Source: an uncultured Alphaproteobacteria bacterium (GTDB lineage: Bacteria; Pseudomonadota; Alphaproteobacteria; Rhizobiales; Methyloligellaceae). From it: a DNA stretch of 24,000 nucleotides. Made by a program: the position numbers and the translations under genes. A model generated the notes under the pieces. The model worked only from the letters and a program-made list of their open reading frames with translations. It ran no database searches and was not told the DNA's origin. The stretch is taken from NCBI GenBank assembly GCA_963732955.1, contig CAVTBH010000003.1:383727-407726 (forward strand). The letters are read 5' to 3'. Shown piece by piece: positions 2 through 17,316 of the stretch (positions are counted from its first letter, which is position 1; every line of letters starts with the position of its first letter).

Positions 2-409
2 TTAGCCCGGATTGCCAGCGAACTTCTGGGTCTCTTCACAGAGCGTGACCCAGTCTTGCGCGGAGTTTGTCCAGATCTCCAAATTGGGCTTCAATCCGGT
101 AACGTCGTCGAGGGTCCCGGCCTTGAGAAACAACACGCCGGGAAAGGCCTTGGCATCGGTGGCAATCGCCGATCCGCATTTGCCGCAGAACATGCGCAGC
201 ACCGGCTGGCCCGAGGTGCCAACATCCTCATAGACCATCGGCTGCCCGGTCATATGCACGCTGTCGCCCGCCACGCCAAGATTTATCGAGAAGGCTGAAC
301 CGGTTGCCTTTTGGCAATGTGAACAGTGACAGATCGCGAGCATTTGCGGCTCGGCATCGGTCTCGTATTTGACGCTGCCACACAAGCAGCTGCCTGAGAG
401 TTTCGACAT
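2..409 (-). CDS. GFA/CENP-V family (glutathione-dependent formaldehyde-activating enzyme-like) Zn-Cys protein
   Basis: Complete 135-aa ORF (stop at 2-4). Cys motifs SCLCGS, CHCSHCQKATG and FCGKCGS are typical of the GFA fold. AGGAG (416-420 on the complement) lies 6 nt upstream of the ATG at 409. Confidence 0.8.
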   Translation of the reverse strand: MSKLSGSCLCGSVKYETDAEPQMLAICHCSHCQKATGSAFSINLGVAGDSVHMTGQPMVYEDVGTSGQPVLRMFCGKCGSAIATDAKAFPGVLFLKAGTLDDVTGLKPNLEIWTNSAQDWVTLCEETQKFAGNPG

Positions 410-463: not shown

Positions 464-982
464 TCAGTCTTGGTGGTCGTGGTCGTGATCATGGTCCGCG
501 TCGTGGTGGTGCTCGTGGTCCATGTCGGGCATGGCGGCACTCGCCTTGGGCTTGAGCGGCATGAATTCCGCTCCCCATGCCTCTTGACCCGGCATCTTCA
601 CGAACACGACGACGGTGCTGTCCTGGTCGAGCTTATAATCGCCTTTGCCCTTGAAGATGTTGTCGCCCGCCGGCGTGAGCTTGATCGTCGCCACCTCCTT
701 GCCGCTGCCGTCGTGTACCACGGCTTTGCCCTCGCCTCCCGCCGTCGGAACGTTCTCGTTGGCATGGTTTGCCAAATAAACCGTGATCTCGCCCGGTTTT
801 TTGGTCACGAGTTCGATGTGGTAGGGCCCAGCCATGCGTCTCTGGCCACCATGCGGTGCGGGATGGGTGTCGAAATACTCAGCAGTGTGAGCCCAAGCCG
901 GGGCCGGGGCGACCGCTAACAGCGCTAAGCCCATGAGGGGCAACGCCATGCCCGTGAGGGCCGAGATCCACTGTGTCTTCAT
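464..982 (-). CDS. Secreted protein with His/Asp-rich C-terminal tail, putative periplasmic metal-binding protein
   Basis: 172-aa ORF with a GGAGAGGA RBS upstream of the ATG at 982. Sec-type signal peptide ending APAWA, followed by HTAEY (predicted mature N-terminal His). Beta-rich middle part. The tail is MPDMDHEHHHDADHDHDHDHQD. No family recognised. Confidence 0.6.
   Translation of the reverse strand: MKTQWISALTGMALPLMGLALLAVAPAPAWAHTAEYFDTHPAPHGGQRRMAGPYHIELVTKKPGEITVYLANHANENVPTAGGEGKAVVHDGSGKEVATIKLTPAGDNIFKGKGDYKLDQDSTVVVFVKMPGQEAWGAEFMPLKPKASAAMPDMDHEHHHDADHDHDHDHQD
470..525. repeat. Short GTGGTC/GTGATC-type codon repeat encoding the (His-Asp)n tail
   Basis: The plus strand reads gtggtcgtggtcgtgatcatggtccgcgtcgtggtggtgctcgtggtc. 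This is low-complexity coding sequence inside the 464..982 CDS. Confidence 0.6.
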
Positions 983-1039: not shown

Positions 1040-3064
1040 TCAGTGCACGTGATCCGCCGCGGGCGGCAGAATTTGCGGTTCATGCTGTAGCTGTGCGAGT
1101 TGGGCCGTCAGGAGTCCGCCGTCGCTCCAGCCGGCACTGTCGTCTCGCGGGATCCAGCGTCCCCGCAGATAGCCGAACCTGTCGACCAGCAGCTCCATGT
1201 GGGGTGGGATCTCGCCACCGCCGAAAAGATCGGGGTTAGCAATGGTCCGCCGGAACTCCTCGTAGCTGCGTCCGATCTCGCTGTCGCCTTCGACCACCGG
1301 AAACGGGATCTGCCGCACCCATTGTGGGTCCGGCGTTGACCCTCCCCAGGGAATGGCAATGACCTCGGCGCCGCTATTCTTTATCGCCTCGTACTCGGAA
1401 CGAATGGCGTCGAGCCGCGCCTTGTCTTCAGGCCAGGTGAAGAACACGAGAAGCACCGTCTGCTTGTTCCGGAAATCCTTGAGAGTGCGGGTCACACCGT
1501 GCTGATCGATGAAGGTAAAGTCTGGGGCGCCCAGATCTTTCGACGGCCGCTCCGGCACCACGCGTGGCGTCAGCGTTCTGCTTTGGTAGCCTCGCGAAAT
1601 AACGTGAATATAATTGACGAGATCCCAGCGATCGTCCTCGGTCAGCCGGCCGGCGAAGGGCGGCATGCCGGCAACCGGAAACCCGGTGCCGATCCAGTTG
1701 TAGAAGTCTCCAACCTGGTGCTGTGCCGTATGAGGCTCGGTCAGGAGGTCGATCGGCTTCTTGGGCAGACTGGCGGCGAGCGGCCCATCGCCTTTGCCCT
1801 GGAGACCGTGGCAGGGGGTGCAGTTGGCCGCAAACAAGCTCGCGCCGCGGGCGATGGAAATGGCGTCGAACGGGACCACGGTGTTTCGGTAGGAATCGAC
1901 GCTGGCTCTGGTCGATATGGCGTACAGCGAAACCCCGATACCGGAGAGAGCCAGCACCACAATCGCGCTCAGCACGGACCGGCGCCAACGAAAGCTTGAG
2001 CGTCTCCAAGCAAAGACGAGAGAGACTGCCGCAGCGAAGAGCCCCGCGCCGATGAGAAGATCGGTGGCTGTGCCGGGCACGCCGAGGTCCAAGGTGCCCG
2101 CAATCGAGAATCGGAACGGATAGGGCCAGTAGGCAATGGTGGCGTGCTTGGCTGGAATCGCACTGGCGCACAAGGTGGCGGCCAATATCAACAGCGCAGC
2201 GAGCGTGAATTCCACCGTCACGCCCCGGCGCAACGGACGCCACGCCGCCGCTTTCGGTGGGTTGCTAACCTCGAGCTGCGGCACCCAGACGAATCGGGCG
2301 TAAGCAGCGATCACCAGGATCGCGCAAAGCAGTAACAGTTTGGTCAGCAGGTATGCCCCGTAGTCCGTCGACACGAGCGCGGCATAGCGGCCGTCCACTT
2401 GCAGATTGCCGACGAGGACACCGGTGATGAGGATCACGATCATGATCGGCAGAGCCATCACCGAGAAGCTGTGAATTGCCTTCACACCCGAGGGTCCGGC
2501 GGCACCATCCGTGCGCCTCAAGGCGCTATAGACCACGGCGAGAAAGGCTGGCAGCCCTCCGAACCAGATGCCGGCCATGAGGATGTGGAGCGCATAGATA
2601 CTGACAGGGAACAGCGGCAACTCCTCCGCGACCGCGTGGCTCGAGAGCGCTGCCGCCATCAGCGCCGTCCCGGCGGCCGTAGCGCAGAGCAGATAACGCC
2701 ACCGGGCGCTTGGCGCCTTGCGGACATAGATCGCGATCGGGAGCAGCAGGAACACCAGGCCCATGCGCGCCGCCCACACCCGTCCCAGCCAAGTGTTCTT
2801 GACAACACCGAGCCACGCCCCGGGCTTCCACGCATTCGCCACAACATCCGTGATCTCCGCCGTCTTGGCGGCGAGCTCGACAAGCATGAGCACGGCAAGC
2901 GCCGCCACCAGCCATGGCAGCGCGCGCTCAAGCCGATCGAGCAACGGATCGTGGAAGGTGGCCTTGTCGTAGCTGGCGACGACGAAAAAAACGCAAGTGC
3001 CAAGCACGATCATGTTGGCGACAAGCTGCAGCCACTTTGCGACAACGCCAGCCACTTCGATCAT
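1040..3064 (-). CDS. copD: CopD-family copper membrane protein fused to a c-type cytochrome domain and a Cys-less AhpC/TSA (peroxiredoxin/thioredoxin-fold)-like domain
   Basis: 674-aa ORF. About 10 hydrophobic helices by eye in the N-terminal 400 aa, placed directly after copC. Haem motif CTPCHG, followed by GMPPF and DRWDLVNYI (class I cytochrome c pattern). The C-terminus APDFTFIDQHGVTRTLKDFRNKQTVLLVFFTWPEDK...GAEVIAIPWGG resembles AhpC/TSA but lacks the catalytic Cys. The ATG at 3064 lies 2 nt after the copC stop (TAGGAATG). Confidence 0.8.
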   Translation of the reverse strand: MIEVAGVVAKWLQLVANMIVLGTCVFFVVASYDKATFHDPLLDRLERALPWLVAALAVLMLVELAAKTAEITDVVANAWKPGAWLGVVKNTWLGRVWAARMGLVFLLLPIAIYVRKAPSARWRYLLCATAAGTALMAAALSSHAVAEELPLFPVSIYALHILMAGIWFGGLPAFLAVVYSALRRTDGAAGPSGVKAIHSFSVMALPIMIVILITGVLVGNLQVDGRYAALVSTDYGAYLLTKLLLLCAILVIAAYARFVWVPQLEVSNPPKAAAWRPLRRGVTVEFTLAALLILAATLCASAIPAKHATIAYWPYPFRFSIAGTLDLGVPGTATDLLIGAGLFAAAVSLVFAWRRSSFRWRRSVLSAIVVLALSGIGVSLYAISTRASVDSYRNTVVPFDAISIARGASLFAANCTPCHGLQGKGDGPLAASLPKKPIDLLTEPHTAQHQVGDFYNWIGTGFPVAGMPPFAGRLTEDDRWDLVNYIHVISRGYQSRTLTPRVVPERPSKDLGAPDFTFIDQHGVTRTLKDFRNKQTVLLVFFTWPEDKARLDAIRSEYEAIKNSGAEVIAIPWGGSTPDPQWVRQIPFPVVEGDSEIGRSYEEFRRTIANPDLFGGGEIPPHMELLVDRFGYLRGRWIPRDDSAGWSDGGLLTAQLAQLQHEPQILPPAADHVH

Positions 3065-3066
3065 TC

Positions 3067-3465
3067 CTATTTCTCCGGTGCGTTCCCTTGCACCGTGAAA
3101 TCGTAGGCGTCGTTGACGACATGGCCATCGACGGACAACACGCGGTACGTGACGGTGTACTTGCCGGGCGCGAGAGCGGGCAGCGGCAGCACGAGCAACT
3201 TCGGATCATCGCTTGCGATCGCCGGCTTGACCTCGGTCACCGGCTTGCCCGAGGCGTCGACCACGGCGAGCGAGGCGTAGTCCCCCTCGATTTCCTCGTC
3301 GAACCAGAGCGCCACCCGCGTCGGTGCAGTCGCGACGTTGGCGCGCTGCGCAGGTTCGGCTTTGATGAGTTGGGCATGGGCATAGGCGTGCGAGGCGAGC
3401 GCCACAAAGAGCACCAGCGCGAGGCTCGCGGCGATCATGTCCGCGATCCGCTTTACAGTTTTCAT
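3067..3465 (-). CDS. copC: CopC-family periplasmic copper-binding protein
   Basis: 132-aa ORF. Signal peptide ends HAYA, and the mature N-terminus HAQLIKAEPA...VALWFDEEIE matches the CopC pattern (N-terminal His, H-x-x-L, P, L-x-F). The C-terminal YRVLSVDGH is typical of CopC. GGAG RBS upstream. Confidence 0.85.
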   Translation of the reverse strand: MKTVKRIADMIAASLALVLFVALASHAYAHAQLIKAEPAQRANVATAPTRVALWFDEEIEGDYASLAVVDASGKPVTEVKPAIASDDPKLLVLPLPALAPGKYTVTYRVLSVDGHVVNDAYDFTVQGNAPEK

Positions 3466-3578: not shown

Positions 3579-4559
3579 TTATCGACTGACTGTTCTTTCT
3601 TCGCCACGGCGCTGCCCTAATGGCCCGCGCATCGCAGAGCGGGACTCGTTGCCCGTAAGGCCTTCCGCCGCGGCGGGAGCGACGTCACCACCGGAGACGA
3701 AGAAGTGGACGATCTCCGCCTCCAAGCCCGGCCACTCTCCGTGCCAACGCGAGCCTTCGCAATAGCGCGTCGAACCTCCCGTGGCGCAGGCCTGATAGGC
3801 GACGCATTGTTCACCCGCGGGCAGAGGCGGCTTCGCCAGATCGCAGTTGTTGCACGCCGCCCACCATTTCGCCGCCTGAGCTCCCCAGCCTGGGAAGAGC
3901 ATGTCCCGGCTGCTGTGCATGACCATCACTGGAAACGGGGCGGAGGGGCATTTGAAGGTCTCAAAGTCGGTCGCCGAGAAGCCGGCAGCGCTCGGCGCTA
4001 TGCCGGACAGAAGTCCCCTCGTATCGCCTAGGAGGGCGATGGCCGTCGACACCGTGCCGCCATCAGAATGGCCGGTCGCATATATCCGGTGGCTATCGAT
4101 GCACCACTTGTCCGCGATCTCCGCCGGCAGCTTCGCGAGCTCCTTCACCGTGTCGAGGGTCATCGGACGGTGAGTCGGGTAGCCAACGACGAACCCGTTC
4201 TGCGTCGCCTCGGTGGTGAGGTGGGTCAGAGTTTCATTCTTCGCCGCGCTCAGGCCTCCCGCTGCGTAAACCATCAGCAGGGGATGGGCGAAAGTCGGAT
4301 CGTAATTGCGAGGCGTTCTGACATTGTACCAAATTCCGTCGATCGATTTCTGGTTGTCCGTCGCACCAGCTTCCCCCAACTTCGTCCCCGCTTCGCAAGT
4401 GCCATGGCGGCCAGCGGTGGTGTAGTCGAATTGCGCGATATCCACGCCCTCGACCGGATCGGACTGCGAGCAGCCCGCAAGCGCCCCCGCAATTGCGGTG
4501 CCCAACATCCAAATGGATCGACGCTTATGCGCGCAAGACGATCCCCAACGCCACGGCAT
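3579..4559 (-). CDS. Exported alpha/beta-hydrolase, PHB-depolymerase/LpqC-family esterase lipoprotein
   Basis: 326-aa ORF. N-terminal KRR, a hydrophobic stretch and lipobox LAGC. Nucleophile elbow GHSDGG. Cys-rich C-terminus (CNNC, QCVAYQAC, YCEGSRWHGEWPG) resembles the COG3509/TIGR01840 esterase family. The start lies 6 nt after the stop of the upstream gene. Confidence 0.6.
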   Translation of the reverse strand: MPWRWGSSCAHKRRSIWMLGTAIAGALAGCSQSDPVEGVDIAQFDYTTAGRHGTCEAGTKLGEAGATDNQKSIDGIWYNVRTPRNYDPTFAHPLLMVYAAGGLSAAKNETLTHLTTEATQNGFVVGYPTHRPMTLDTVKELAKLPAEIADKWCIDSHRIYATGHSDGGTVSTAIALLGDTRGLLSGIAPSAAGFSATDFETFKCPSAPFPVMVMHSSRDMLFPGWGAQAAKWWAACNNCDLAKPPLPAGEQCVAYQACATGGSTRYCEGSRWHGEWPGLEAEIVHFFVSGGDVAPAAAEGLTGNESRSAMRGPLGQRRGEERTVSR

Positions 4560-4565: not shown

Positions 4566-5159
4566 TCATTGGGCCTTTCGCTGCGCTGCCGCTGTCCCCT
4601 TGGACAGCGTGGTCGAGTACCAGTAGAAGCCGATCCCGGCCAGGATCACCAAGCCGACGAACATATACGGCCTAAACCTGCTCCAGCCCTTGGCCACGCT
4701 GAAGGGGAATCGCGACACGTACTGTCCGTTGGCGTCACTGGTCGTCACCACTCCGACGAACTTCCCGGCCTCTTTGAAGTCGTGCTCGAAGGTCACGCTG
4801 CCGGTGGGATAGACCTTCGCCGGGAGATGCAGGACCGTGACGGCCTCTATATCGCTCTCGTCTCCGGTATCGCGAATGACCCGTACATCGAGCGGCTGTT
4901 CCCGCAACGGCGGATCGATCGCGTCGAATGCCACAATGGTATCGCCGAGCTCTGGGATGTCCTCACAGAATTCCTTGGTGCCGGTTGCTTCAGGCTGGTA
5001 ACCCGTGAAGTGCATCGCGTAGGGACCGATGCGCAGTTTGCACGTGTCCTGCTCCATGCTGAGGCCGCCATGCGCAAGGGCAAGTCGAGGAACCATGATG
5101 AACAACGCTGCCAAAGCGATCAGCAATGGCAGCGCCAAATTTCGGTATTGTCCGCTCAT
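4566..5159 (-). CDS. pmoD: PmoD/AmoD-like protein: signal peptide, about 140-aa periplasmic domain, C-terminal TM anchor
   Basis: 197-aa ORF immediately downstream of pmoB, the position pmoD occupies in alphaproteobacterial methanotrophs. Signal peptide ends LALA, followed by HGG. There is a Cys then Met-His segment (DTCKLRIGPYAMHF). C-terminal helix FVGLVILAGIGFYWY. GGAG RBS. The assignment rests on architecture and synteny, not on an alignment. Confidence 0.5.
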   Translation of the reverse strand: MSGQYRNLALPLLIALAALFIMVPRLALAHGGLSMEQDTCKLRIGPYAMHFTGYQPEATGTKEFCEDIPELGDTIVAFDAIDPPLREQPLDVRVIRDTGDESDIEAVTVLHLPAKVYPTGSVTFEHDFKEAGKFVGVVTTSDANGQYVSRFPFSVAKGWSRFRPYMFVGLVILAGIGFYWYSTTLSKGTAAAQRKAQ

Positions 5160-5211: not shown

Positions 5212-6486
5212 CTAGTTAACCGAACCCTTCTTGGTGAAGTAAGGGACGATCGGCCCGTAAATGTTGGCGATCTCCCTCTTGCCGTCCGAGTCGAAGAAGA
5301 ACAGCAGCCCGCCAACGCGATTGTCGGGGTCATTCAAGAGGGCCGTCAGACGCTCCGTTTCCCAGGCGGCGTCGGTCAGATCGATATTTACCGTGCGCGT
5401 TTCACCGGGTTGGATCGGCGCGTCGTTGTCGACCTTCAGTCCTGCCGGCGGAAGAAGTTCCTTGGGGAAACTTGGATCTATTTCTGCCACCGCCGCTGGG
5501 ACCGCATAGTTCACGAATCGAAGACCTGCGGTCTCAAACTCGCCGATTTGGATCGGCTTCGTCCCCGTGTTGGTGACCTCTAACTCAAGCTTCATCGACC
5601 GGCCCGGCACGTCATACGTGGCCCGGTCCATTTTTATGGTGACGGTACGAGGTGCTTGCGGCAGCGGATCCACCTTGAACGTACCGCTCTGCAACGGGAC
5701 GGTGTTTGGATAGGCCGCATTCGCCCATTGAACGCCCAGAAATACCGTCAGGATCGTGGCGACGAGGAAAAATGCGCCCCAAAGACGATCCCCGCGGGTG
5801 ATGAGCACGTCCTCGTTGCCTTCCGTTATCACCAGATAGCGGGGGATAAGCATCGGCTTGCGCAGGAACCACAACATATAAACCAGCGCCGCAATGAACC
5901 AGAGCGCATGCCATTTGACCACGGTGCCAAATCCCCAGCTCGTGAGATCCGCGATCTGAGTGCCGTCGAGGGTCGTCGCTGGAAGCCGGAAATCCGACTC
6001 ATTCCCGGTGACGTCGATCCATGCGCCAGGTCCAAGGATGGCCCCCGCCCCACTGATGTTGAGCATGGCATGAACATGGTGCCGGCCGGGCTGACGTGCC
6101 TTGAACACGATCTTGAAATCATAGTCGCGATCGAGCTCTAGCTTGCCCGACTGGATCGCAGGCTGTCCATTGATGTAGCTCGCAACGCGGGCGAACACCG
6201 GTCCCGACGTTCCGCTCCCAAGAAACGCAGTCTCTGGCTTGGGCAGATTGTTCGGCCAATCCGTGAACAGCCTGAATTTGCCTGTGACGGTGAGAAGATC
6301 ATTCACTGCGAGTTTGTTCGTGCTCCACTTCACATCGTAAAAGTGGGCGGTTCGCATGCGCAGGAATGGCTCCTGGTTGCGCTCGCCATGCGCATAAGCA
6401 TCCGTGCCGATGCAACAGCCTAGCGACACCAAGACTCCGAGCCATCCGGCCAATCGCGTCAAGCGGCTTGCGAAGATCCCGATCAT
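5212..6486 (-). CDS. pmoB: Copper membrane monooxygenase subunit B (PmoB/AmoB family)
   Basis: The ORF track runs to 6570. The ATG at 6486 is preceded by GGGAGGAAGGA (about 6494-6504, complement) and gives 424 aa, a typical PmoB length. Signal peptide ends TDAYA, then HGERNQEP (N-terminal His ligand). GRHHVHAM carries the H-x-H Cu ligands. Two TM helices in the middle (FIAALVYMLWFL, LWGAFFLVATILTVFLG). Confidence 0.9.
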   Translation of the reverse strand: MIGIFASRLTRLAGWLGVLVSLGCCIGTDAYAHGERNQEPFLRMRTAHFYDVKWSTNKLAVNDLLTVTGKFRLFTDWPNNLPKPETAFLGSGTSGPVFARVASYINGQPAIQSGKLELDRDYDFKIVFKARQPGRHHVHAMLNISGAGAILGPGAWIDVTGNESDFRLPATTLDGTQIADLTSWGFGTVVKWHALWFIAALVYMLWFLRKPMLIPRYLVITEGNEDVLITRGDRLWGAFFLVATILTVFLGVQWANAAYPNTVPLQSGTFKVDPLPQAPRTVTIKMDRATYDVPGRSMKLELEVTNTGTKPIQIGEFETAGLRFVNYAVPAAVAEIDPSFPKELLPPAGLKVDNDAPIQPGETRTVNIDLTDAAWETERLTALLNDPDNRVGGLLFFFDSDGKREIANIYGPIVPYFTKKGSVN

Positions 6487-6566
6487 AGAGATTTCCTTCC
6501 TCCCACTCATTTTGTTGTGCGAACGCGTCTGTTTTTCAGACGCGTCCGTTGTCCCTCGAAGAGGCT

Positions 6567-7394
6567 TCACACCGGCTGCGTTTCAGCCGCGGCATGACGA
6601 TCTTTCTTGAACCCCATCATGGTCTTGAGCTTGTTGGGGACCCACACCACGCGAGCCAAGAACATGCCGATGTACCACCACAGGAGATACATCAGCGTGC
6701 AGGCGAACCCAGCGAAGAACGAGGCGATCACCGCCGAGTGTCCGCCGAATGTGCGGAGCGTCCCGCGCTCGATTAACCTCGAATATTCAGGCGTCGCCGT
6801 TCTGGTGAAGGCGTAGCCAATGTAGTCCCCGACTGACACCATGCTGTCCATGACTTCCATCGGCAGACGATAGGCTGCCAGCATCGGCCAGTTGCCGGCA
6901 TAGAAGATCAAGCCGAAACCCATCCCACCGAAAATGGCCGTCAGCAGAAAATTTCCGGTGAGAAGCAATATGGTGTCGAGGAGGATGGCTCCGGGGATCA
7001 ACGTCGCCGGCCAGATCAAGGTCATGGGGAAATCAGACCAAAGATGGAAGCCGAAGCCCCTGGCCATCCATTCCCCGATAAGCAGGCATACGATGCCAAA
7101 CGTGGCGCCGATCGGCAGCCTGAATTTCTCCCAGAACACATACTGGAGAGCCGCGGGAAACGTGATCGCCACGATCGGCGTCAGCGTCGGCCACCACTGC
7201 CGGTCCTTCCAGTCGACCCAGAAATCCCAGTCCCCGGCTAGAAGCATGAAATGCAGGTGAAACGCGGACAACACCGCCAGAAAAAGGACAATCGCGACGA
7301 GGATGTCGAACCACCGCGAAAGGGCCGCGCTCCATTTCGACCACGTCACCCCGTAGATTTGCACGGTCTCGGAGTCAGCCAACTTCTGCTGCAT
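6567..7394 (-). CDS. pmoA: Copper membrane monooxygenase subunit A (PmoA/AmoA family), divergent
   Basis: 275-aa ORF with a GGGAGGA RBS. Hallmark stretches are HLHFMLLAGDWDFWVDWKDR, LLIGEW, GNWP, TPEYSRLIERGTLRTFG. It carries an extra basic C-terminal tail of about 25 aa relative to canonical PmoA of roughly 250 aa. Confidence 0.9.
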   Translation of the reverse strand: MQQKLADSETVQIYGVTWSKWSAALSRWFDILVAIVLFLAVLSAFHLHFMLLAGDWDFWVDWKDRQWWPTLTPIVAITFPAALQYVFWEKFRLPIGATFGIVCLLIGEWMARGFGFHLWSDFPMTLIWPATLIPGAILLDTILLLTGNFLLTAIFGGMGFGLIFYAGNWPMLAAYRLPMEVMDSMVSVGDYIGYAFTRTATPEYSRLIERGTLRTFGGHSAVIASFFAGFACTLMYLLWWYIGMFLARVVWVPNKLKTMMGFKKDRHAAAETQPV

Positions 7395-7468
7395 ATTACG
7401 ATCCTCCCGGGAGCTCCGCCGGACAGAAGACCTGTCCGGCGGAGTGAATCTAGTTCTTTTGTTTTAGT

Positions 7469-8284
7469 TTAGACGGCGACGCCCGGCATTTCGGCGTCAG
7501 CGCGCCGGAAACATTCGAGCATGCCCTGCACGATCTGGATGAGCAGCCCACCAAGGGCGAGCACGCTCCAGCCAAGCACGACGAAGCCCCAATGAACCGG
7601 CGCCGAGAACACCTCCTCGATTTGGAAGAACGCGTGCATCCACTCGTTGTAGCCGAGGTTCGGCAGGATCAAGAATGGCCCAAGCACCGCCAGCACAAAC
7701 GGGACGGAGATGTTCTTGGCGAATTTCGGCAGCCTCGTCATCGCATACAGGAATGAGCCGACGCCGAACAACACGTAGAGCGGCATCGCGCCATAAAACA
7801 GCACGATGTGACTGGGCGTGAAGCTGGTGTCGCGAACCACGGTCTGATGCCACGAGGCATCCTGCTCAGCGAAGAAACTTCCGCCGAAATACACGGCGAA
7901 GGCGTAGACCATGATGAACATCACCAGGGTGAAGTAGCGCTTGATCTCCGTGCGCACCGGAAGCTGGTCCAGGTGCTTGTCGCGGGTGAACCAGATGTAC
8001 GACCACAGCGCAACATAGCTGGCCATGATCAACGTCAACTCGGCCCGCATCAGATTCATCCAGTAGGTGTCGAACTCTGGAAGGGTCGAATCGAGGCCAG
8101 CGGTGAATGCAAACATCTGCTGGTACGTGCGGTAGCACACCATCACGACCGCGATACCCAATATCGCGAGCACGGCGGTGCGCAACGAAACAAACCTATT
8201 GGGCGAGTAATCAGCCCTCTTGTATTCAGACCTCGGGGGCGAGCTTTCAATCGCTCCCGTCGCTCGAACAGCTGCCATCGTCAT
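7469..8284 (-). CDS. pmoC: Copper membrane monooxygenase subunit C (PmoC/AmoC family)
   Basis: 271-aa ORF with GGAGGA 6 nt upstream of the ATG. EQDASWHQTVVRDTSFTPSH gives D-x3-H-x12-H, and NEWMHAFFQIEEVFSAPVHWG gives N-x3-H-x13-H. Both match the spacing of the two PmoC metal sites. Confidence 0.9.
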   Translation of the reverse strand: MTMAAVRATGAIESSPPRSEYKRADYSPNRFVSLRTAVLAILGIAVVMVCYRTYQQMFAFTAGLDSTLPEFDTYWMNLMRAELTLIMASYVALWSYIWFTRDKHLDQLPVRTEIKRYFTLVMFIMVYAFAVYFGGSFFAEQDASWHQTVVRDTSFTPSHIVLFYGAMPLYVLFGVGSFLYAMTRLPKFAKNISVPFVLAVLGPFLILPNLGYNEWMHAFFQIEEVFSAPVHWGFVVLGWSVLALGGLLIQIVQGMLECFRRADAEMPGVAV

Positions 8285-8640
8285 TTTTCGTCCTCCATTT
8301 ACGTTCCTGTTGCTTTGCTATTCGGCCGCAGCCCGACCTGACGCCACGGCCGCACGAAACCTTCATTCATCCCCCCGGCACGCTTGGCGCGTGCCGCATA
8401 CCTGTGTGCTCCCCTCGCTTCCTCCCGAACCAACAGCGATCCCGTTGTCCGAAAGAGTCTCCCGGCCAAATCCCTCGTGACGTGGCTTGAGGGCGAGCAC
8501 AGCTGGCCTTTGACTCTTGAGGTATAGACTACAGCGTGCTGTCCGAACCGCCATTGAACTTACGTAGGAGGACGCAGTCCAAGGACTAACAAACACTCAA
8601 TTCATATTTGTATTGGGGCGACAGCGGGCGCTTTGATCTA
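8285..8640 (-). promoter_or_regulatory. Long untranslated leader and probable promoter region of the pmoC-led operon
   Basis: About 650 nt of non-coding DNA separates the ompW stop from pmoC, and long 5' leaders are known for pmoCAB mRNAs. A perfect 8-bp stem-loop sits at 8376-8396 (CGGCACGC ttggc GCGTGCCG). An AT-richer segment lies at 8580-8640. No convincing -35/-10 pair could be fixed by eye. Confidence 0.3.
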
Positions 8641-8933
8641 GGACAGACTTCTTGCGTGATCTCGCTTCAGCGAAGCATTATGTTGCGACGCAGCATAATT
8701 GGTGCGCTGCACTTGCAGTCATCGGTTGACCTGCTTCAGGCCGACTGCAATTTGATGCCTTTGCGGCCTGCGAAAGCCGAGGAGGCTCACACCCTGCCAG
8801 GCCTGATCTTCACGCTGGGGTGGCGCGCATCATTACAACGCCGCGACGTTGCCGCAGCCAAAGCCGGCTGGGCAACGCGATCGCGGCGGGTCAACGGAGA
8901 GAGGAGACGGCGTCTTACCGCCGCGGCTGAGCC

Positions 8934-9728
8934 TCAGAACTTGTAGCCAATACCGGCGCTCAGGATCCACGGATCGAGTTTCAGATTGTCCACGACCAGC
9001 GAGCGTCCAGCCAAGATGCCCTTCCCTCGCCAAGACACGTCCGGCTCCAGGAACATGTATTTGGCGTCGACGTTCAGCTGCCAGTTCCCGCCAATAGCGA
9101 TATCGGCGCCAAACTGCCCGGTGACGCCCCACGAGTCGTCGATCTTCACCGACTTTGCGACCGGCGCCAGGCCAGAGCCGACTTCCGAATCGACGAAGAT
9201 CGCGTAAGTGGGGCCCGCGCCGACATACGGCTTGAACGCGCCCATCGGGATATGGAACTGGAACAAGATGGTTGCGGGGATCGCCCAGGTGCTGGCGACT
9301 TCCCGACCGGTCCCGGTCACGGCGTTGATGGTATCGCCGAGCGCCCCGGTGGCGTCGACCGTATGCTTGGTCGCACAGCAGATCGCTTCGACGGCGAAGT
9401 TATTCGTCAGAAAGTAGGAGAAGTCGAGTTCCGGGATCCACTGGTTCGTTACCGATGCGTCGTGGCCGGGCAAGACGCCGCCACTTAGCGGGAAGAATGG
9501 GCCCGCCGGGTTGATGTAGGCTTTGTCGACATCGCCTTCCATGATCAAGTAGGTGGCACGCGCCCTGACAAGAAAGTGCCCCGCCCAGTCGCTCGAAGCC
9601 ACCGGCGCCGGCGGCGGCTCCAGCGAATCTCCTGCCATCGCAGGTGAGCCAGCACTCAAGATGACGCCCAGTCCCAAGGCGAACCCAATGGCCAGCGCCG
9701 AATGAGACATCTTTTGGCGACGTGTCAT
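8934..9728 (-). CDS. ompW: OmpW/AlkL-family outer-membrane beta-barrel protein
   Basis: The ORF track starts at a TTG at 9737. The ATG at 9728 gives MTRRQKMSHSALAIGFALGLGVILSAGSPAMA as signal peptide. Family-like stretches are FAVEAI, KPYVGAGPTYAIF, WGVTGQFGADI and the C-terminal LSAGIGYKF. Confidence 0.8.
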   Translation of the reverse strand: MTRRQKMSHSALAIGFALGLGVILSAGSPAMAGDSLEPPPAPVASSDWAGHFLVRARATYLIMEGDVDKAYINPAGPFFPLSGGVLPGHDASVTNQWIPELDFSYFLTNNFAVEAICCATKHTVDATGALGDTINAVTGTGREVASTWAIPATILFQFHIPMGAFKPYVGAGPTYAIFVDSEVGSGLAPVAKSVKIDDSWGVTGQFGADIAIGGNWQLNVDAKYMFLEPDVSWRGKGILAGRSLVVDNLKLDPWILSAGIGYKF

Positions 9729-10105
9729 GATTTCCAATCCCCCGTCTTCTCTCGTTTTATTCTTTCATCCCCCAGAATCCCAACAAACGCAGGAGTTGAA
9801 TTTTCATACGAGACGGTAGAACCTCTGTCCCTTCGACCAAAGTCCAAATGCTAAGCATGGCGGACAAGCTCCGGGATTGAATCAAGCGCGATGCGACCGA
9901 TGCCACTGCGCTCCACCACTCTAAGCGCCTGAAAGAGAATGAGTTTTTAAAACAAAAGTTGGAGAAAAATATTCCTCGGCATGGCCAATTCTGCTGTGGC
10001 AGAACAGTCACATAGCTGGCCTAAATTAAACTCAATTCGATTTGGTCGGGCCCCCGCCGAAAGGCGCCCTGCGAGACTGATCTACATCATTTTTGCGGAT
10101 CGGGG

Positions 10106-13372: not shown

Positions 13373-13657
13373 AACGGTCCTTGCAAGAACGGGCGCCTCT
13401 TTAAGCCTGGCCGGCATGGAGCAGGTCCCCGTCATTTTCGGAAAGGCCCCGGTTTGGGCCGGTTTCGTCGTCGTTGTGGTGCCTTCCCGTTATCGACCCA
13501 ATCGGCCGGTATTTCTTTTGGACTAAAGTATACCCAATCTCTGGGGTGCAGATGCTCGCCCTCCCTGGGAGGCGATGCGATGATGATAACGTTCGGTGAC
13601 CCGCGCGGGCCGGACACGCAACGAATAAGAAGATGCCAACCGGGAGGGTAAGCGCAG

Positions 13658-15571
13658 ATGAGCCGCTACGGCGAGGTCTATGAAAGCTGGCGAAAAGACC
13701 CCGAGTCGTTCTGGGCCAATGCGGCGTCGGATGTCGTCTGGCACAAACCGTTCGACAAAGTCTTCGACGGTGACGCCGGGATCTATGGCCGCTGGTTCGT
13801 CGGCGGCGAATGCAACACCTCCTATAACTGCGTCGACCGACACGTCGCCGAAGGACGCGGGAACCAGACCGCGATCATCTATGACAGTCCCGTGACCGGG
13901 ACCGAGAGGTCACTCACCTTCGCCGAGCTTCTCGACGAGGTCGAAACCTTTGCCGCCGTCCTCGCCGACAAGGGCGTGAGGAAGGGGGACCGCGTCGTCA
14001 TCTATATGCCGATGGTGCCGGAGACCGTTGTCGCCATGCTCGCCACGGCGCGGCTTGGGGCCGTTCACTCCGTCGTCTTCGGCGGCTTCGCCGCCGCCGA
14101 GCTCGCGGTCCGCATCAACGACGCCATGCCGAAGGCCGTGGTCTCAGCGTCGTGCGGCGTGGAACCCGGGCGCATCGTGCATTACAAGCCGTTGCTTGAT
14201 GCCGCGATCGAGATGGCCGACCACAAGCCTGACGCCTGCATCATCCTCCAGCGCACCATGGCGGAAGCGCCTCTCCTCAAGGGGCGCGACGACGACTGGG
14301 CTGAGTGCGTTGCGAACGCTCGGTCGCAAGGCCGCAAGGAGGCTTGCGTTCCGGTCGCCGCGACTGATCCGCTCTACATTCTTTACACCTCCGGCACGAC
14401 CGGACACCCCAAGGGCGTGCTGCGCGACAATGGCGGTCACATGGTGGCGCTGAAATGGTCGATGCCGAACATCTACGACGTGAAGCCGGGCGAAACCTAT
14501 TGGGCCGCATCCGATATCGGCTGGGTGGTCGGTCACTCCTATATCGTCTATGCGCCGCTCCTGAACGGCAACGCCACCATCGTCTTTGAAGGCAAGCCGG
14601 TCGGCACCCCAGACGCCGGAGCCTTCTGGCGGGTGATCTCGGAGCATCGGCCTGCTGCCCTGTTCACGGCGCCGACCGCGCTCCGCGCCATCAAGCGGGA
14701 CGACCCCCGGGGCGACTTCATCCGGCGCTACGACCTCTCCAGCCTGCGCACGCTGTTTCTCGCCGGCGAGCGCGCCGACCCCGACACCATCCTATGGGCC
14801 GAGGAGCATTTGGGCATTCCGGTGATCGATCATTGGTGGCAGACGGAAACCGGATGGGCGATCGCTGGCAATCCTGTCGGCCTCGGCCCACTGCCGGTGA
14901 AGCGCGGCTCGGCCGCGGTCGCCATGCCAGGCTATGACATCCAGATCCTCGACGACGGCGGTCATCCGGTCGAGACCGGCAAGCTCGGCAATATCGTGAT
15001 GAAGCTGCCGCTGCCGCCGTCCTGCCTGCCGACGCTATGGCATGCCGACGACCGCTTTCGCGCCAGCTATCTCGATGAGTTTCCCGGCTATTGCAAGACC
15101 GCCGATGCCGGCTACCGCGACGAGGACGACTACATCTTCATCATGAGCCGCACCGACGACATCATCAACGTTGCAGGCCATCGCCTGGCCACCGGCGCCA
15201 TGGAGGAGGTGCTTGCCTCGCACAAGGACGTCGCCGAATGCGCCGTCATTGGCGCTTTCGACACGGTGAAGGGCGAGGTGCCGGTCGGCTTTCTCGTGGT
15301 GAAGTCCGGCGTCGAGCGCGACCGGGCCGCGATCGAGAAGGAAGTCATCGAGCTCGTGCGCGAGCGAATCGGGCCGGTCGCTGCCTTCAAGACCGCCTTG
15401 ACGGTGTCCCGGCTGCCGAAAACGCGTTCGGGCAAGATCTTGCGCGGCACCATCAAGAAGATCGTCGACGGCCAGAGCTACAATCTGCCGCCGACGCTGG
15501 AAGACCCTGCCGCGCTCAGCGAGATCGAGACGGCCGTCGAGAGCCGCAAGCGTGCGGCAGTCACCGCCTAA
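13658..15571 (+). CDS. prpE: Propionate-CoA ligase (propionyl-CoA synthetase, acyl-CoA synthetase family)
   Basis: 637-aa ORF with a GGGAGGG RBS. The N-terminus ...ESFWANAA...WHKPF...RWFVGGECNTSYNCVDRHV and the YTSGTTGHPKG AMP-binding motif are PrpE-like, as is the length. Confidence 0.85.
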   Translation: MSRYGEVYESWRKDPESFWANAASDVVWHKPFDKVFDGDAGIYGRWFVGGECNTSYNCVDRHVAEGRGNQTAIIYDSPVTGTERSLTFAELLDEVETFAAVLADKGVRKGDRVVIYMPMVPETVVAMLATARLGAVHSVVFGGFAAAELAVRINDAMPKAVVSASCGVEPGRIVHYKPLLDAAIEMADHKPDACIILQRTMAEAPLLKGRDDDWAECVANARSQGRKEACVPVAATDPLYILYTSGTTGHPKGVLRDNGGHMVALKWSMPNIYDVKPGETYWAASDIGWVVGHSYIVYAPLLNGNATIVFEGKPVGTPDAGAFWRVISEHRPAALFTAPTALRAIKRDDPRGDFIRRYDLSSLRTLFLAGERADPDTILWAEEHLGIPVIDHWWQTETGWAIAGNPVGLGPLPVKRGSAAVAMPGYDIQILDDGGHPVETGKLGNIVMKLPLPPSCLPTLWHADDRFRASYLDEFPGYCKTADAGYRDEDDYIFIMSRTDDIINVAGHRLATGAMEEVLASHKDVAECAVIGAFDTVKGEVPVGFLVVKSGVERDRAAIEKEVIELVRERIGPVAAFKTALTVSRLPKTRSGKILRGTIKKIVDGQSYNLPPTLEDPAALSEIETAVESRKRAAVTA

Positions 15572-15755: not shown

Positions 15756-17300
15756 ATGCAACTTATTGTAACGCCAGAAACTCCGGCCTCCGCGCTTGAG
15801 CGCGTCGGCGGCCAGATCAAGGTCCGCAACCGCTACGACAATTTCATCGGGGGTGAATGGGTCGCCCCGGTGAAAGGCCAATATTTCGATAACCCCACGC
15901 CGATCAGCGGCGAGATCATTTGCTCCGTCGCGCGTTCGACCGCCGAGGACATCGAGAAAGCGCTCGATGCCGCTCACGCCGCGGCGCCGGCATGGGGCAA
16001 GGCGTCGCCGACCGAGCGCGCAGCAGTTCTGTTCAAGATCGCCGACCGCCTCGAAGCCAACCTCGCCGACCTTGCCACCATCGAGACCATCGATAACGGC
16101 AAGCCAATCCGCGAGACCATGGCTGCCGACCTGCCGCTCGCCGTCGACCAGATCCGCTATTTCGCGAGCTGCATCCGTACGCAGGAAGGCTCGCTGTCGG
16201 AGATCGACGAGACCACCATCGCCTATCACTACCACGAGCCGCTCGGCGTCGTCGGCCAGATCATTCCCTGGAACTTCCCGATGCTGATGGCGGTCTGGAA
16301 GATCGCTCCGGCACTTGCAGCCGGCAACTGCGTCGTCCTGAAGCCGGCCGAGCAGACGCCGATGGGCATCATGGTGATCGTCGATCTGATCGCCGATCTG
16401 CTGCCGCCAGGCGTGCTGAACGTCGTCAACGGTTTCGGCATCGAAGCCGGCAAGCCGCTCGCCTCGAATCCGCGCATCGCCAAGATCGCCTTCACCGGCG
16501 AGACCACGACGGGCCGGCTGATCATGCAATACGCGGCCGAGAACATTATCCCGGTCACGCTCGAGCTCGGTGGCAAGTCGCCGAACATCTTCTTCGCCGA
16601 CGTACTCGACGCCGACGACGATTTCTTCGACAAGGCCCTCGAGGGCTTCACCATGTTCGCCCTCAATCAGGGCGAGGTCTGCACCTGCCCGTCCCGCGCG
16701 CTGGTGCAGGAGTTGATCTACGACGCCTTCATCGAGCGCGTGCTCGAGCGGGTCAAGAAGATCACCCAAGGCAATCCTCTCGATCCGACCACGATGGTCG
16801 GGGCCCAGGCCTCTTCCGACCAGCTCGAGAAGATCCTGTCCTATATCAGCATCGGCAAGGATGAGGGCGCCAAGGTCCTGACCGGCGGCAACAAGGCCGA
16901 CATCGGCCGCGGCTTCGAGAATGGCTTCTATGTCGAGCCGACGGTGTTCACGGGCCACAACCGGATGCGGATCTTCCAGGAGGAGATCTTCGGCCCGGTC
17001 GTCTCGGTGACTACCTTCAAGACCGAGGACGAGGCGCTCAGTCTCGCCAACGACACGCTTTACGGTCTCGGCGCGGGCGTGTGGACGCGCGACCTCAACA
17101 CCGCCTACCGCATGGGCCGCGGCATCAAGGCCGGGCGCGTGTGGACCAACTGCTATCATCTCTATCCGGCTCATGCCGCGTTCGGCGGCTACAAGAAGTC
17201 GGGCGTCGGGCGCGAGACGCACAAGATGATGCTCGATCACTATCAGCAGACCAAGAACGTCCTGGTCAGCTACAGCCCAAAGGCGCTTGGGTTCTTCTGA
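15756..17300 (+). CDS. NAD-dependent aldehyde dehydrogenase (ExaC/AcoD-like acetaldehyde dehydrogenase)
   Basis: 514-aa ORF with a [34 protein letters not shown] matches the ExaC-type N-terminus. Also ELGGKSPNI and the catalytic-region [11 protein letters not shown]. Confidence 0.9.
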
Positions 17301-17316
17301 GCCTTAGCGTTCCTCC

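Follow-up and report, generated by a model that had tools for sequence, protein, structure and literature searches.

Which substrate is oxidized by the copper membrane monooxygenase (CuMMO) of an uncultured soil alphaproteobacterium, a member of the Hyphomicrobiales, and does the enzyme stand for a new lineage? In the 24,000-nucleotide stretch of DNA that was analyzed (the window), the CuMMO operon occupies positions 8284..5212 of the minus strand and comprises three adjacent open reading frames, which follow each other in the direction of transcription in the order C-A-B that a first-pass annotation had proposed. XmoC (271 aa, 7469..8284) belongs to the PmoC/AmoC family (Pfam AmoC, E=1e-93), XmoA (275 aa, 6567..7394) to the PmoA/AmoA family (Pfam AMO, E=9e-96) and XmoB (424 aa, 5212..6486) to the PmoB/AmoB family (Pfam Monooxygenase_B, E=8e-143), and at Pfam E-values of 1e-93 to 1e-143 a chance family match is excluded for all three. 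The xmoC ATG is preceded by the Shine-Dalgarno sequence GGAGGA. A 452-aa version of PmoB beginning with GTG (to 6570) was rejected as too long; in a public annotation of an identical contig the gene starts at M29. This start gives the 424-aa protein encoded at 6486..5212 and thus leaves xmoA and xmoB 80 nt apart rather than overlapping.

The copper ligands, claimed to be intact, could all be located. Alignment to PmoB from M. capsulatus Bath places cleavage of the XmoB signal peptide at ...DAYA|H33, giving a mature N-terminal His33 that makes up the CuB site with H137 and H139 (numbering as in Bath PmoB). H48 is retained and an arginine is present at the position of Bath H72. XmoC provides D142/H146/H159 for CuC (D-x3-H-x12-H) and N213/H217/H231 for CuD (N-x3-H-x13-H). 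As these ligands are kept in essentially all of the about 89 CuMMO loci compared, they speak for an intact enzyme and carry no information on the substrate. Judged from its sequence, XmoCAB is complete and probably functional. XmoA is indeed longer (275 aa) than the pMMO PmoA chains in the PDB (247-252 aa) and has a basic C-terminal tail (RVVWVPNKLKTMMGFKKDRHAAAETQPV, six K/R and two D/E); its supposed distinctiveness did not hold up, since such a length is usual among beta-AOB AmoA (273-274 aa) and non-methanotroph proteobacterial CuMMOs and a long XmoA with a basic tail is therefore no special feature.

The three genes are part of a cassette that continues with genes for a cupredoxin resembling PmoD, a serine esterase of the periplasm, CopC, a fusion of CopD with cytochrome c and thioredoxin-like domains, and a small secreted protein rich in histidine. 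All are read from the minus strand, neighbors being 2-113 nt apart, and terminator-like sites are missing between them. A single transcription unit is therefore probable. The pmoD/amoD-like gene (197 aa, 4566..5159; phmmer to PmoD structure 6cpd, E=1.7e-22) is situated 3' of xmoB in nearly all loci of the clade described below. [quoted passage not shown] Among 29 homologues, conservation is at least 95% for C40, H50 and the HGG at the mature N-terminus. The next gene (326-aa ORF, 3579..4559) encodes a periplasmic lipoprotein serine esterase, an alpha/beta hydrolase of the CE1/PHB-depolymerase type, which probably starts at M18 in view of a lipobox (LAGC) at residues 27-30. NCBIfam and PDB sequence matches to PHB-depolymerase/feruloyl esterases are weak; the AF2 model (pLDDT 85) retrieves feruloyl esterase, acetyl-xylan esterase and PHB depolymerase as best Foldseek hits (E=5e-13 to 2e-10). 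S165 (in GHSDGG), D219, H273 and six cysteines are invariant in 46 homologues. The gene occurs in most cassettes of the clade; the extended pmo/amo operons described by Fisher et al. lack an equivalent. CopC (132 aa, 3067..3465; Pfam CopC, E=1e-24), which scores 84.5 bits against the NCBIfam copper_CopC model and thus below its cutoff of 95, is kept across these cassettes. The fusion protein (674 aa, 1040..3064) consists of Pfam domains CopD (196-297), Cytochrom_C (404-487) and AhpC-TSA (513-601), and the same architecture (639-674 aa) is found in the JGI, DD4, Rugosibacter and Bradyrhizobium cassettes. The last cassette gene (464..982), conserved in 13 loci, encodes a 172-aa secreted protein with a mature N-terminal His32, an HGG motif (both at least 95% conserved in these loci) and a His/Asp-rich C-terminal tail; it has no match in Pfam, NCBIfam or the PDB and is a putative periplasmic metal (copper) binder. 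A co-directional gene for a GFA-domain protein (135 aa, 2..409, minus strand; Pfam GFA, E=1.5e-33) follows the cassette in alphaproteobacterial relatives only, with the same place in loci L001 and L011/L089. It was rejected as a true S-(hydroxymethyl)glutathione synthase at 22 bits versus an equivalog cutoff of 234.

XmoA is 99% identical to a MAG protein (locus L001), 75% to that of Azoarcus sp. DD4, 68% to that of Bradyrhizobium niftali, 59-60% to those of Haliea ETY-M and ET-HIRO (A2), 50-52% to AMO and 49.6% to Bath PmoA, with type II methanotroph PmoA chains scoring lower still; XmoB shares 45% with Bath PmoB. The first-pass annotation had put the similarity to pMMO at about half of the positions, which is confirmed, and had held that identity above, for example, 85-90% would make this an ordinary PmoCAB1 or PmoCAB2 operon; at about 50% or less it is not one. 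Among enzymes whose substrate is indicated at the level of the organism, those of the ethane/ethylene-linked ET-HIRO and Haliea come nearest (56-60%). In a concatenated CAB tree (neighbor joining, 819 columns, 300 bootstraps, actinobacterial HMO as outgroup) the window sequence forms a clade with 100% support together with B. niftali, Rhodocyclales and Betaproteobacteria-HGW-11 MAGs, a JGI contig and gammaproteobacterial MAGs, the latter from lake or groundwater. With the Cycloclasticus and UBA2780 lineages it forms a larger group at 81%, and neither the clade nor this supergroup includes beta-AOB AMO, Bath pMMO or Pxm. In the XmoA tree, ET-HIRO A1 and ET-SHO A1 reside within the Cycloclasticus lineage and ET-HIRO A2 within the UBA2780 lineage. 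Deep nodes are neighbor-joining nodes with 78-81% support, and Haliea and ET-HIRO are placed in the single-gene XmoA tree only, where deep support is weak. On this basis the clade appears nested, with the Cycloclasticus lineage, in a proteobacterial hydrocarbon-monooxygenase supergroup (81% support). Measured against the reference families it is distinct from AMO, pMMO and Pxm, with actinobacterial HMO most distant. The suggestion of an uncharacterized lineage has to be given up: the clade is already known and well populated in public genomes, including that of the cultured Azoarcus sp. DD4, and its Bradyrhizobium members were listed as "CuMMOs of unknown function" by Khadka et al. (2018). It is little-studied, and the present operon adds one more member.

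Azoarcus sp. DD4 (CP022958, ~2.354-2.362 Mb) is a betaproteobacterium, as opposed to the alphaproteobacterial host of the window, and yet exhibits the same gene order: outer-membrane channel, xmoCAB, pmoD-like, esterase, copC, copD-cytc-thioredoxin fusion and small secreted protein (XmoA 75%, XmoC 70% and XmoB 64% identical). It differs by a FadL/Toluene_X (FadL/TodX) hydrocarbon channel in place of OmpW, an additional 107-aa EthD-like gene, and genes for DUF2946 and a TonB-dependent receptor immediately downstream. A Rugosibacter MAG also carries the cassette. B. niftali contains xmoCAB, a small gene, copC and the copD-cytochrome c fusion without the esterase, between relaxase/T4SS genes on one side and an IS66 transposase gene on the other, surroundings that look like an integrative conjugative element.

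Among systems outside the clade, the ET-HIRO/ET-SHO, Haliea ETY-M and Cycloclasticus symbiont type shares the CAB order and the long XmoA and is linked to ethane and ethylene; its XmoA proteins are only 49-60% identical, its supergroup membership in the CAB tree is represented by the Cycloclasticus and UBA2780 stand-ins (81%), and the loci examined have only a pmoD-like gene after B and no esterase/copCD cassette. Rochman and colleagues reportedly described, in 2020, divergent betaproteobacterial xmoCABD in ethane and propane users not assimilating methane, the hosts being, as is said, alkane-utilizing Rhodoferax/Polaromonas. By description rather than by sequence, these clusters resemble the window cassette as divergent proteobacterial CuMMOs that include a D gene, are present as several paralogues in a genome and belong to hosts that are neither methanotrophs nor nitrifiers. 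Passages of other papers cite the Rochman et al. clusters as alkane-linked. The actinobacterial HMO (HmoCAB of M. chubuense NBB4, pHMO of Rhodococcus sp. ZPP), the one CuMMO type for which oxidation of C2-C4 alkanes has been proved heterologously, has the CAB order and is plasmid-borne and thus also mobile, but it is the most distant (A 41-43%, C 40-41%, B 30-31%) and has other accessory genes.

Since the clade nests in the hydrocarbon-monooxygenase supergroup, the substrate to be expected by default is a C2-C4 hydrocarbon and not the new substrate class that had been considered. We infer that XmoCAB is most likely a short-chain hydrocarbon monooxygenase using neither methane nor ammonia. The small hydrophobic molecule that it would hydroxylate is most probably a C2-C4 alkane, alkenes serving as co-substrates, and the enzyme, like other CuMMOs, would use the copper site(s) of PmoC for catalysis. 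Copper would be taken up and delivered by CopC/CopD, PmoD and the His-rich protein, and the reducing equivalents needed in copper handling may come from the cytochrome c and thioredoxin-like domains fused to CopD. The alcohol would be oxidized to the aldehyde by a dehydrogenase encoded outside the window, and the aldehyde possibly be taken on by the products of nearby genes on the plus strand: an ExaC-type acetaldehyde dehydrogenase (514 aa, 15756..17300; NCBIfam AcaldDHExaC 928 bits, cutoff 900; Pfam Aldedh), whose DUF779 partner is encoded in ORF 17081-17803 (Pfam DUF779), and a propionate/acetate-CoA ligase-like protein (637 aa, 13658..15571; Pfam ACAS_N and AMP-binding) with best NCBIfam scores below cutoff (PrpE 729 bits, cutoff 955; Acs 629 bits, cutoff 657). 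These genes lie at most 8 kb from the operon, and their synteny, retained only in the MAG of the closest Hyphomicrobiales relative, may be ordinary. The window contains no alcohol dehydrogenase, the one candidate having been rejected as an AcuI-like acrylyl-CoA reductase (NCBIfam). Genes for methanol dehydrogenase (MDH), hydroxylamine oxidoreductase (HAO) or soluble MMO are likewise missing among its open reading frames, as had been noted, which means little in 24 kb.

OmpW-family proteins include the alkane importer AlkL. A gene for such a channel (8934..9737, minus strand; Pfam OmpW, E=3e-41) is co-directional with xmoC, 650 nt upstream. The long leader between them (8285..8933, minus strand), 94% identical in a related MAG, contains no sigma-70 consensus match, intergenic terminator-like site or Rfam family. 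Elsewhere a channel gene adjoins xmoC in locus L087 (OmpW) and in DD4 (FadL/Toluene_X) and was not found in the other loci of the clade, so that one is seen in three of about 20 lineages. The OmpW channel, the FadL/TodX gene before the DD4 cassette and the ExaC/ligase neighbors count for a hydrocarbon. Against an alkane weigh, besides the rarity of such channel genes, the narrow conservation of these neighbors and the modest deep support of the trees, the following points: no clade member has a demonstrated substrate; a simple alkane pathway offers no task for the periplasmic esterase; and in DD4, a cultured heterotroph grown on propane and toluene whose genome paper mentions "a copper membrane particulate monooxygenase" without assigned function, propane oxidation is credited to two soluble di-iron monooxygenases and not to the CuMMO.

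An alkene such as ethylene or propylene could be the true substrate, the epoxide passing to a coenzyme M pathway on the same island. Some 6.5 kb past the window the host has another CuMMO operon, and immediately upstream of it lie genes of coenzyme M biosynthesis, an alkene/epoxide signature. These genes lie ~25-30 kb from XmoCAB on the same contig (XcbC 644 bits, cutoff 575; XcbE 500, cutoff 450; an XcbD fragment). Further genes of this contig encode an acyl-CoA synthetase of the ADP-forming type, an acylating aldehyde dehydrogenase similar to SauS and a protein resembling CoA-disulfide reductase. Haliea ETY-M, which assimilates ethylene with a pmo-like enzyme, has a 59% identical XmoA, and Betaproteobacteria HGW-11, carrier of cassette locus L003, is the top BLAST source for epoxyethane-pathway genes (PMC11507031). 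However, the coenzyme M genes pair with operon 2 and not with XmoCAB, an arrangement recurring in a Methyloceanibacter MAG, they occur within 10 kb in none of about 20 clade loci, and etnE was not seen in the available host sequence, which makes an alkene unlikely. Rather improbable, too, is a substrate beyond the simple gaseous hydrocarbons, be it a ketone, an ether or cyclic ether or an ester-forming compound whose product is processed by the esterase, or a role mainly in co-metabolism or detoxification. The conservation of an esterase predicted to be catalytically intact (S165/D219/H273, confident AF2 model) would fit, as would the promiscuity of CuMMOs, one paralogue of which oxidizes acetone, and the co-oxidation of 1,4-dioxane and chlorinated ethenes by DD4. 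Yet the dioxane activity is assigned to toluene monooxygenase, and since esterase homologues also occur away from CuMMOs, e.g. beside lipid-synthesis genes in Ca. Nitrospira kreftii, and the gene is missing in B. niftali, the esterase may serve envelope or lipid functions.

That the host is a novel Hyphomicrobiales methanotroph with a particulate methane monooxygenase is very unlikely. The enzymes belong to one fold family, pMMO (Bath and type II methanotrophs) and PxmABC having identical copper ligands, SerA relates the host to the methylotroph genera Hyphomicrobium and Methyloceanibacter, and the GFA-domain gene and serA-serC-serB-like genes are close by. Nevertheless, identity to any pMMO does not exceed 50% (about 50% for A, 45% for B), PxmABC differs in its A-B-C order at 41-54% identity, the clade lies outside both, and Azoarcus DD4 and Bradyrhizobium, not described as methanotrophs, also possess the cassette. 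The low GFA score and the lack of MDH in the window add to this; the ser genes are housekeeping genes. An ammonia monooxygenase of a non-canonical nitrifier, heterotrophic or undiscovered, has just as slim a prospect. All three subunits exceed the cutoffs of the NCBIfam AmoA/AmoB/AmoC_BACT equivalogs, beta-AOB AMOs (N. europaea 9CL6, N. briensis 9PXF, 9LEG) are the best-scoring solved structures for XmoA and XmoC, with PmoC next for the latter, and they share the AmoA length, an RTFGGH motif and the logic of the extended amoCAB-amoE/D-copCD operon. The literature also holds beta-AOB AMO to be derived from emo/pxm-like enzymes. But the same NCBIfam models label methanotroph PxmABC "amoABC" and hence are not function-specific, AMO is only 45-55% identical (A 50-52%, C 53-55%, B 45%) and outside the clade, neither hao nor cycAB was seen in ~42 kb annotated (window plus locus L019), and known hosts of the clade are heterotrophs.

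The GC content of the cassette region (57-59%, versus 63-69% in the housekeeping half of the window) and the conjugative/IS66 setting in B. niftali argue that the host probably gained the cassette horizontally. The balance tips slightly toward a complete XmoCAB in a self-contained, probably horizontally acquired mobile cassette of ~8 kb that likely serves C2-C4 alkane hydroxylation, in a clade carried by hydrocarbon-degrading and other heterotrophs and not by methane or ammonia oxidizers.

The CuMMO genes xmoC (8284..7469, 271 aa; Pfam AmoC, E=1e-93), xmoA (7394..6567, 275 aa; Pfam AMO, E=9e-96) and xmoB (ORF 6570..5212, 452 aa with a GTG start; Pfam Monooxygenase_B, E=8e-143) are adjacent and co-directional on the minus strand and are transcribed in the order C-A-B. 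Three subunit families encoded together, combined with the copper ligands, place them in the copper membrane monooxygenase (CuMMO) superfamily. Pfam matches and ligand positions thus bear out the first-pass annotation, which had described a C-A-B operon with intact ligands. Its location at 5212-8284 also stands, but the strand has to be corrected to minus and the start of PmoB shortened. The 452-aa GTG ORF is over-long for PmoB; in the public gene call for a contig encoding an identical XmoA, xmoB starts at M29 (424 aa, 6486..5212), which results in a 32-residue signal peptide ending in ...DAYA. The His-brace of PmoB is made up of the mature N-terminal His33 plus H137 and H139, in the numbering of the CuB site of Methylococcus capsulatus Bath. 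PmoC provides Asp/His/His ligands for CuC (D142/H146/H159) and Asn/His/His ligands for CuD (N213/H217/H231). Copper ligands are kept in essentially all of the approximately 89 CuMMO loci compared; they indicate an intact enzyme and are uninformative on its substrate. The unusual length of XmoA and its basic C-terminal tail, pointed out earlier, are real, but 275 residues are not peculiar: AmoA from betaproteobacterial ammonia oxidizers (beta-AOB) has 273-274 aa, and A genes of non-methanotroph proteobacterial CuMMOs are equally long (811 ± 22 nt versus 744 nt in Methylococcales).

A protein search with XmoA returned one 99% identical match, followed by an unbroken series of relatives descending from 87% to 60%. 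Genome scans assigned the former to a 417-kb contig of the uncultured alphaproteobacterial MAG MFD04944.bin.1.97 and revealed further relatives in Rhodocyclales and Betaproteobacteria-HGW-11 MAGs, many lake and groundwater Gammaproteobacteria MAGs, a Hyphomicrobium MAG (79%) and Bradyrhizobium niftali. In a neighbor-joining tree of concatenated XmoCAB (819 columns, 300 bootstraps, rooted with actinobacterial hydrocarbon monooxygenase, HMO), these sequences and the window operon form a clade with 100% bootstrap support. It is joined by another alphaproteobacterial MAG at 98%, by the lineage of a second operon from the same host at 78% and by the Cycloclasticus and UBA2780 lineages at 81%. The window enzyme thereby falls into the proteobacterial hydrocarbon-type supergroup (emo/ET-HIRO/Cycloclasticus/Haliea), with Cycloclasticus and UBA2780 serving as stand-ins at the 81% node, while beta-AOB ammonia monooxygenase (AMO), Bath pMMO and Pxm reside outside. 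The only tree that includes ET-HIRO and Haliea is that of XmoA, where deep support is weak; in it, the Cycloclasticus lineage contains ET-HIRO A1/ET-SHO A1 and the UBA2780 lineage contains ET-HIRO A2. Identities over trimmed alignments are 60% for XmoA from ET-HIRO A2, 59% for that from Haliea ETY-M and 56% for that from ET-HIRO A1. For the plasmid-derived references of actinobacterial HMO (M. chubuense NBB4 and Rhodococcus ZPP) they amount to 41-43% (XmoA), 40-41% (XmoC) and 30-31% (XmoB). The suggestion that the operon represents an uncharacterised, orphan lineage did not survive: the clade is already present in public genomes and in the literature, where Bradyrhizobium relatives were noted as 'CuMMOs of unknown function' and those from Polaromonas, Rhodoferax, Solimonas and Rhodomicrobium are listed likewise.

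Downstream of xmoB, a series of genes continues on the same strand with intergenic gaps of 2-113 nt and without a terminator-like site between them. The first (4566-5159, minus) encodes a member of the PmoD/AmoD family (E=1.7e-22 to structure 6cpd) with C40 and C65 and a hydrophobic C-terminal segment YMFVGLVILAGIGFYWY. The CuA-forming Cx7MxHxnC motif of the operon-encoded PmoD/AmoE class is absent; the protein exhibits C-x8-M-H (C40, M49, H50), and M49 is conserved in part only. Genes follow for a lipoprotein alpha/beta-hydrolase (3579-4559, minus), CopC (3067-3465, minus), a CopD-cytochrome c-thioredoxin-like fusion (1040-3064, minus), a secreted 172-aa protein (464-982, minus; mature N-terminal His conserved, tail rich in His and Asp), for which a homologue of known structure was not detected, and a GFA-domain protein (2-409, minus). 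Apart from the GFA-domain gene, this set accompanies xmoCAB in nearly all loci of the clade in the same or a permuted order, with the esterase (hydrolase) gene present in most. The flanks differ completely between lineages, and when catabolic neighbours were sought in about 20 clade loci, only the cassette was kept. The clade thus has a conserved accessory cassette, and 100% bootstrap support together with synteny in L002-L016, L087-L089, L091 and L092 (compared loci) places the window operon in the group typified by Azoarcus sp. DD4 and Bradyrhizobium. An outer-membrane channel gene was considered as a further constant partner and rejected, as it occurs in three lineages only. The 650-nt leader was scanned for promoters, terminators and Rfam families, with no usable result.

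In Foldseek, a model of the hydrolase built with 46 homologues (pLDDT 85, core >95) matched feruloyl esterases, acetyl-xylan esterases and a PHB depolymerase at E-values between 5e-13 and 2e-10. Ser165 (in GHSDGG), Asp219, His273 and six cysteines are invariant among the 46 homologues. Because of these fold matches and invariant residues, the protein is very probably an active periplasmic carboxylesterase. Nitrospira often has homologues (about 50-54% identical); in Ca. Nitrospira kreftii (L090:10001-10849), the single genome inspected, the gene resides beside the lipid-synthesis genes for PlsY and a CDP-alcohol phosphatidyltransferase and not beside amo. The idea that the esterase is specific for xmo cassettes was therefore dropped.

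With the esterase as query, a cultured carrier of the cassette, Azoarcus sp. DD4, was found. On its chromosome, genes for a FadL/Toluene_X channel, xmoCAB, pmoD-like, esterase, a 107-aa protein and copC are followed by the copD-cytochrome c-thioredoxin fusion, the small secreted protein, DUF2946 and a TonB-dependent receptor gene. Identities to the window proteins are 75% for XmoA, 70% for XmoC and 64% for XmoB. We know of no characterisation of this CuMMO. Strain DD4 is a diazotrophic heterotroph growing on propane, toluene and 1-propanol; the note on its genome names 'a copper membrane particulate monooxygenase' besides five soluble di-iron monooxygenases and CYP153, and the propane activity was later assigned to two of the soluble enzymes. 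A Rugosibacter MAG also carries the cassette. In B. niftali (L082/L083, chromosome 848-869 kb), it is situated between relaxase/TraG genes and TrbC/VirB3/VirB4/TrbL (T4SS) genes with an IS66 transposase gene alongside, and thus appears to lie within an integrative conjugative element. In the window, the cassette region has a GC content of 57-59% versus 63-69% in the serA-serC region. This contrast and the conjugative setting in B. niftali point at horizontal spread of the cassette. A Hyphomicrobium-like relative (L089:5679-7403, also L011) features a truncated aldehyde dehydrogenase gene (337 versus 514 aa) abutting a truncated xmoC (219 versus 271 aa). It looks as if the about 7.5 kb lying between the two genes in the window, from ompW to the CoA-ligase gene, were lost by deletion, which could have left this operon without promoter or start codon.

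SerA (17864-19495) is 66-71% identical to proteins from Hyphomicrobium and Methyloceanibacter, which identifies the host as an uncultured representative of the Hyphomicrobiales. Compared with the GTDB representative MAG, identities are 99% for XmoA, 98% for XmoC, 95% for XmoB, 87% for CopD and 91% for the aldehyde dehydrogenase, and the exact window XmoA is present on a short contig from run ERR11571143 and is also indexed on one exceeding 1 Mb; the window comes from a strain or species that is closely related to this MAG yet distinct. Upstream of xmoC, a co-directional gene for an OmpW-family outer-membrane channel (8934-9737) is accompanied by genes for a small ferredoxin, a NosP-like FIST protein, an AcuI-like acrylyl-CoA reductase, a PrpE/Acs-like CoA ligase, an ExaC-type acetaldehyde dehydrogenase (928 bits against a cutoff of 900) and the DUF779 partner of the latter, and by serA-serC-serB-like genes. 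The aldehyde dehydrogenase and the CoA ligase fit an alkane-to-acyl-CoA route, and their link to the operon is weak because they are syntenic in the nearest relative only. The ORFs at 12385-13435 were rejected as a zinc alcohol dehydrogenase of an alkane pathway, as NCBIfam identifies them as AcuI-like acrylyl-CoA reductase. This gene (minus) is split into overlapping N-terminal (12947-13435) and C-terminal (12385-13035) parts in different frames, which seem to share a single frame in the related MAG (L001), and is either a pseudogene or affected by an assembly indel. In agreement with the first-pass annotation, genes for methanol dehydrogenase, hydroxylamine dehydrogenase or soluble methane monooxygenase do not occur among the annotated ORFs of the window, nor does one for an alcohol dehydrogenase. 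At the end of the window (22239-24000, plus), a DUF2946 gene occurs together with a 323-aa ORF without annotation and a CopC-domain gene of which only the start lies within the window. In strain DD4, DUF2946 and TonB-dependent receptor genes follow the cassette (L091:14840-17763), and the DUF2946-linked genes in both organisms may constitute an additional copper-uptake module.

The same contig of the related MAG (L019:1-12606) carries a second xmoCAB-pmoD operon (XmoA 59% identical) on the same strand as the window operon and, judged by the overlap of L019 with the last window genes, about 6.5 kb past position 24000. It is directly preceded by genes for XcbC (644 bits, cutoff 575), an XcbD fragment and XcbE (500 bits, cutoff 450), after which, still ahead of the operon, genes for an ADP-forming acyl-CoA synthetase, a SauS-like acylating aldehyde dehydrogenase and a CoA-disulfide-reductase-like flavoprotein are found. 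The same arrangement of coenzyme M (CoM) genes and operon occurs in a Methyloceanibacter MAG (L017). CoM biosynthesis beside a monooxygenase is a signature of epoxide-forming alkene oxidizers, and the second operon therefore probably encodes an ethylene/propylene monooxygenase within an alkene/epoxide module. The host seems to carry an island with two enzymes acting on gaseous hydrocarbons. Between the two CuMMO operons (L019:15507-17189), a gene for a 'quinoprotein relay system zinc metallohydrolase 2' (TIGR04559, 404 bits, cutoff 280) is located next to another gene; a homologous pair, its second member annotated as SoxYZ-like, adjoins the cassette at locus L087 (5852-7590). The pair hints at a linked PQQ-dehydrogenase system, and a PQQ dehydrogenase gene was not found in the sequence available.

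Which substrate is oxidized by the window enzyme? Automatic annotation names ammonia: all three subunits score above the cutoffs of the NCBIfam AmoA/AmoB/AmoC_BACT 'equivalog' models, and AMO structures are the top-scoring PDB matches for A and C. The latter is explained by the origin of beta-AOB AMO, which published trees derive from emo/pxm-like enzymes. Identity to beta-AOB AMO is 50-52% for XmoA (9pxf N. briensis, 9cl6 N. europaea and 9leg) and 53-55% for XmoC and 45% for XmoB (9leg and 9pxf only), and in the tree the chains of 9pxf and 9leg group by themselves at 100%, apart from the 81% supergroup with the window operon. In addition, PGAP/RefSeq, relying on the same NCBIfam models, labels pxmABC of the methanotroph Methylomagnum ishizawai (plasmid pRS11DPr1, L086) as amoABC. 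We consequently do not accept the NCBIfam names as evidence of function and regard automatic 'ammonia monooxygenase' labels on such genes as unreliable. No hao or cycA/cycB gene was seen in the window and L019, covering about 42 kb of the contig, and ammonia oxidation is the least probable reading we consider. A novel pMMO would agree with the copper ligands and is very unlikely in view of the distances. Identity to Bath pMMO is 49.6% for XmoA (260 bits) and 45% for XmoB, and PmoA chains of OB3b and Methylocystis score lower still (244-255 bits). The wide divergence from PmoCAB1/PmoCAB2 of type II methanotrophs that had been proposed is thereby corroborated, identities staying clearly below 85-90%. 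All matches in the genomes of Methylocystis, Methylocapsa and Methylocella are pxmABC operons (47-52%), as are the Methylomonas matches at about 50%. These differ from the window operon in gene order (A-B-C versus C-A-B) and form a separate 100% clade, and Pxm is only 50-52% (XmoA), 51-54% (XmoC) and 41-44% (XmoB) identical, so that the window enzyme is not a Pxm.

The proximity of the second operon raises the idea that the window enzyme is itself an alkene monooxygenase whose product enters the CoM pathway nearby. Within 10 kb, CoM genes occur at no locus of the window's own clade; they were discarded as companions of this clade, being found only with loci of the second-operon type, and we regard this reading as unlikely. 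A different substrate, or co-metabolism in which the esterase takes part, would account for the retention of the esterase gene in most clade loci and also appears improbable. A related proposal holds that the cassette clade is a functionally new CuMMO class acting on neither methane, ammonia nor plain C2-C4 alkanes; its substrates may be, for example, atmospheric gases at trace levels, or an oxygenated or ester-forming compound on which the conserved periplasmic esterase acts. We consider this doubtful. With slightly better than even confidence we favor a non-methane, non-ammonia short-chain hydrocarbon monooxygenase that has its own copper-supply module and was acquired horizontally. Divergent betaproteobacterial xmoCABD clusters have reportedly been described by Rochman et al. 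in 2020 from ethane and propane users that do not assimilate methane.

On present evidence, the window operon adds incrementally to the CuMMOs already recognised as being of unknown function. The main gains are the conserved accessory cassette, the mis-annotation as AMO and the availability of a cultured, genome-sequenced carrier, Azoarcus sp. DD4, in which the substrate can be tested directly. Oxidation of methane, ammonia and short-chain hydrocarbons begins with a step controlled by CuMMOs, and pmoA/amoA-like genes are routine functional markers. The clade is widespread in Alpha-, Beta- and Gammaproteobacteria and mobile, and its automatic annotation as 'bacterial ammonia monooxygenase' can inflate estimates of nitrifiers and methanotrophs in soil, lake and groundwater metagenomes. 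Should the clade indeed be a new functional class, the host would pair such an enzyme with a CoM-linked CuMMO in one 'gas-oxidation island', and soil Hyphomicrobiales would gain an unrecognised part in volatile-hydrocarbon cycling. If the enzyme oxidizes ethane, propane or ethylene in these abundant soil bacteria, it would represent an added sink for non-methane volatile hydrocarbons.
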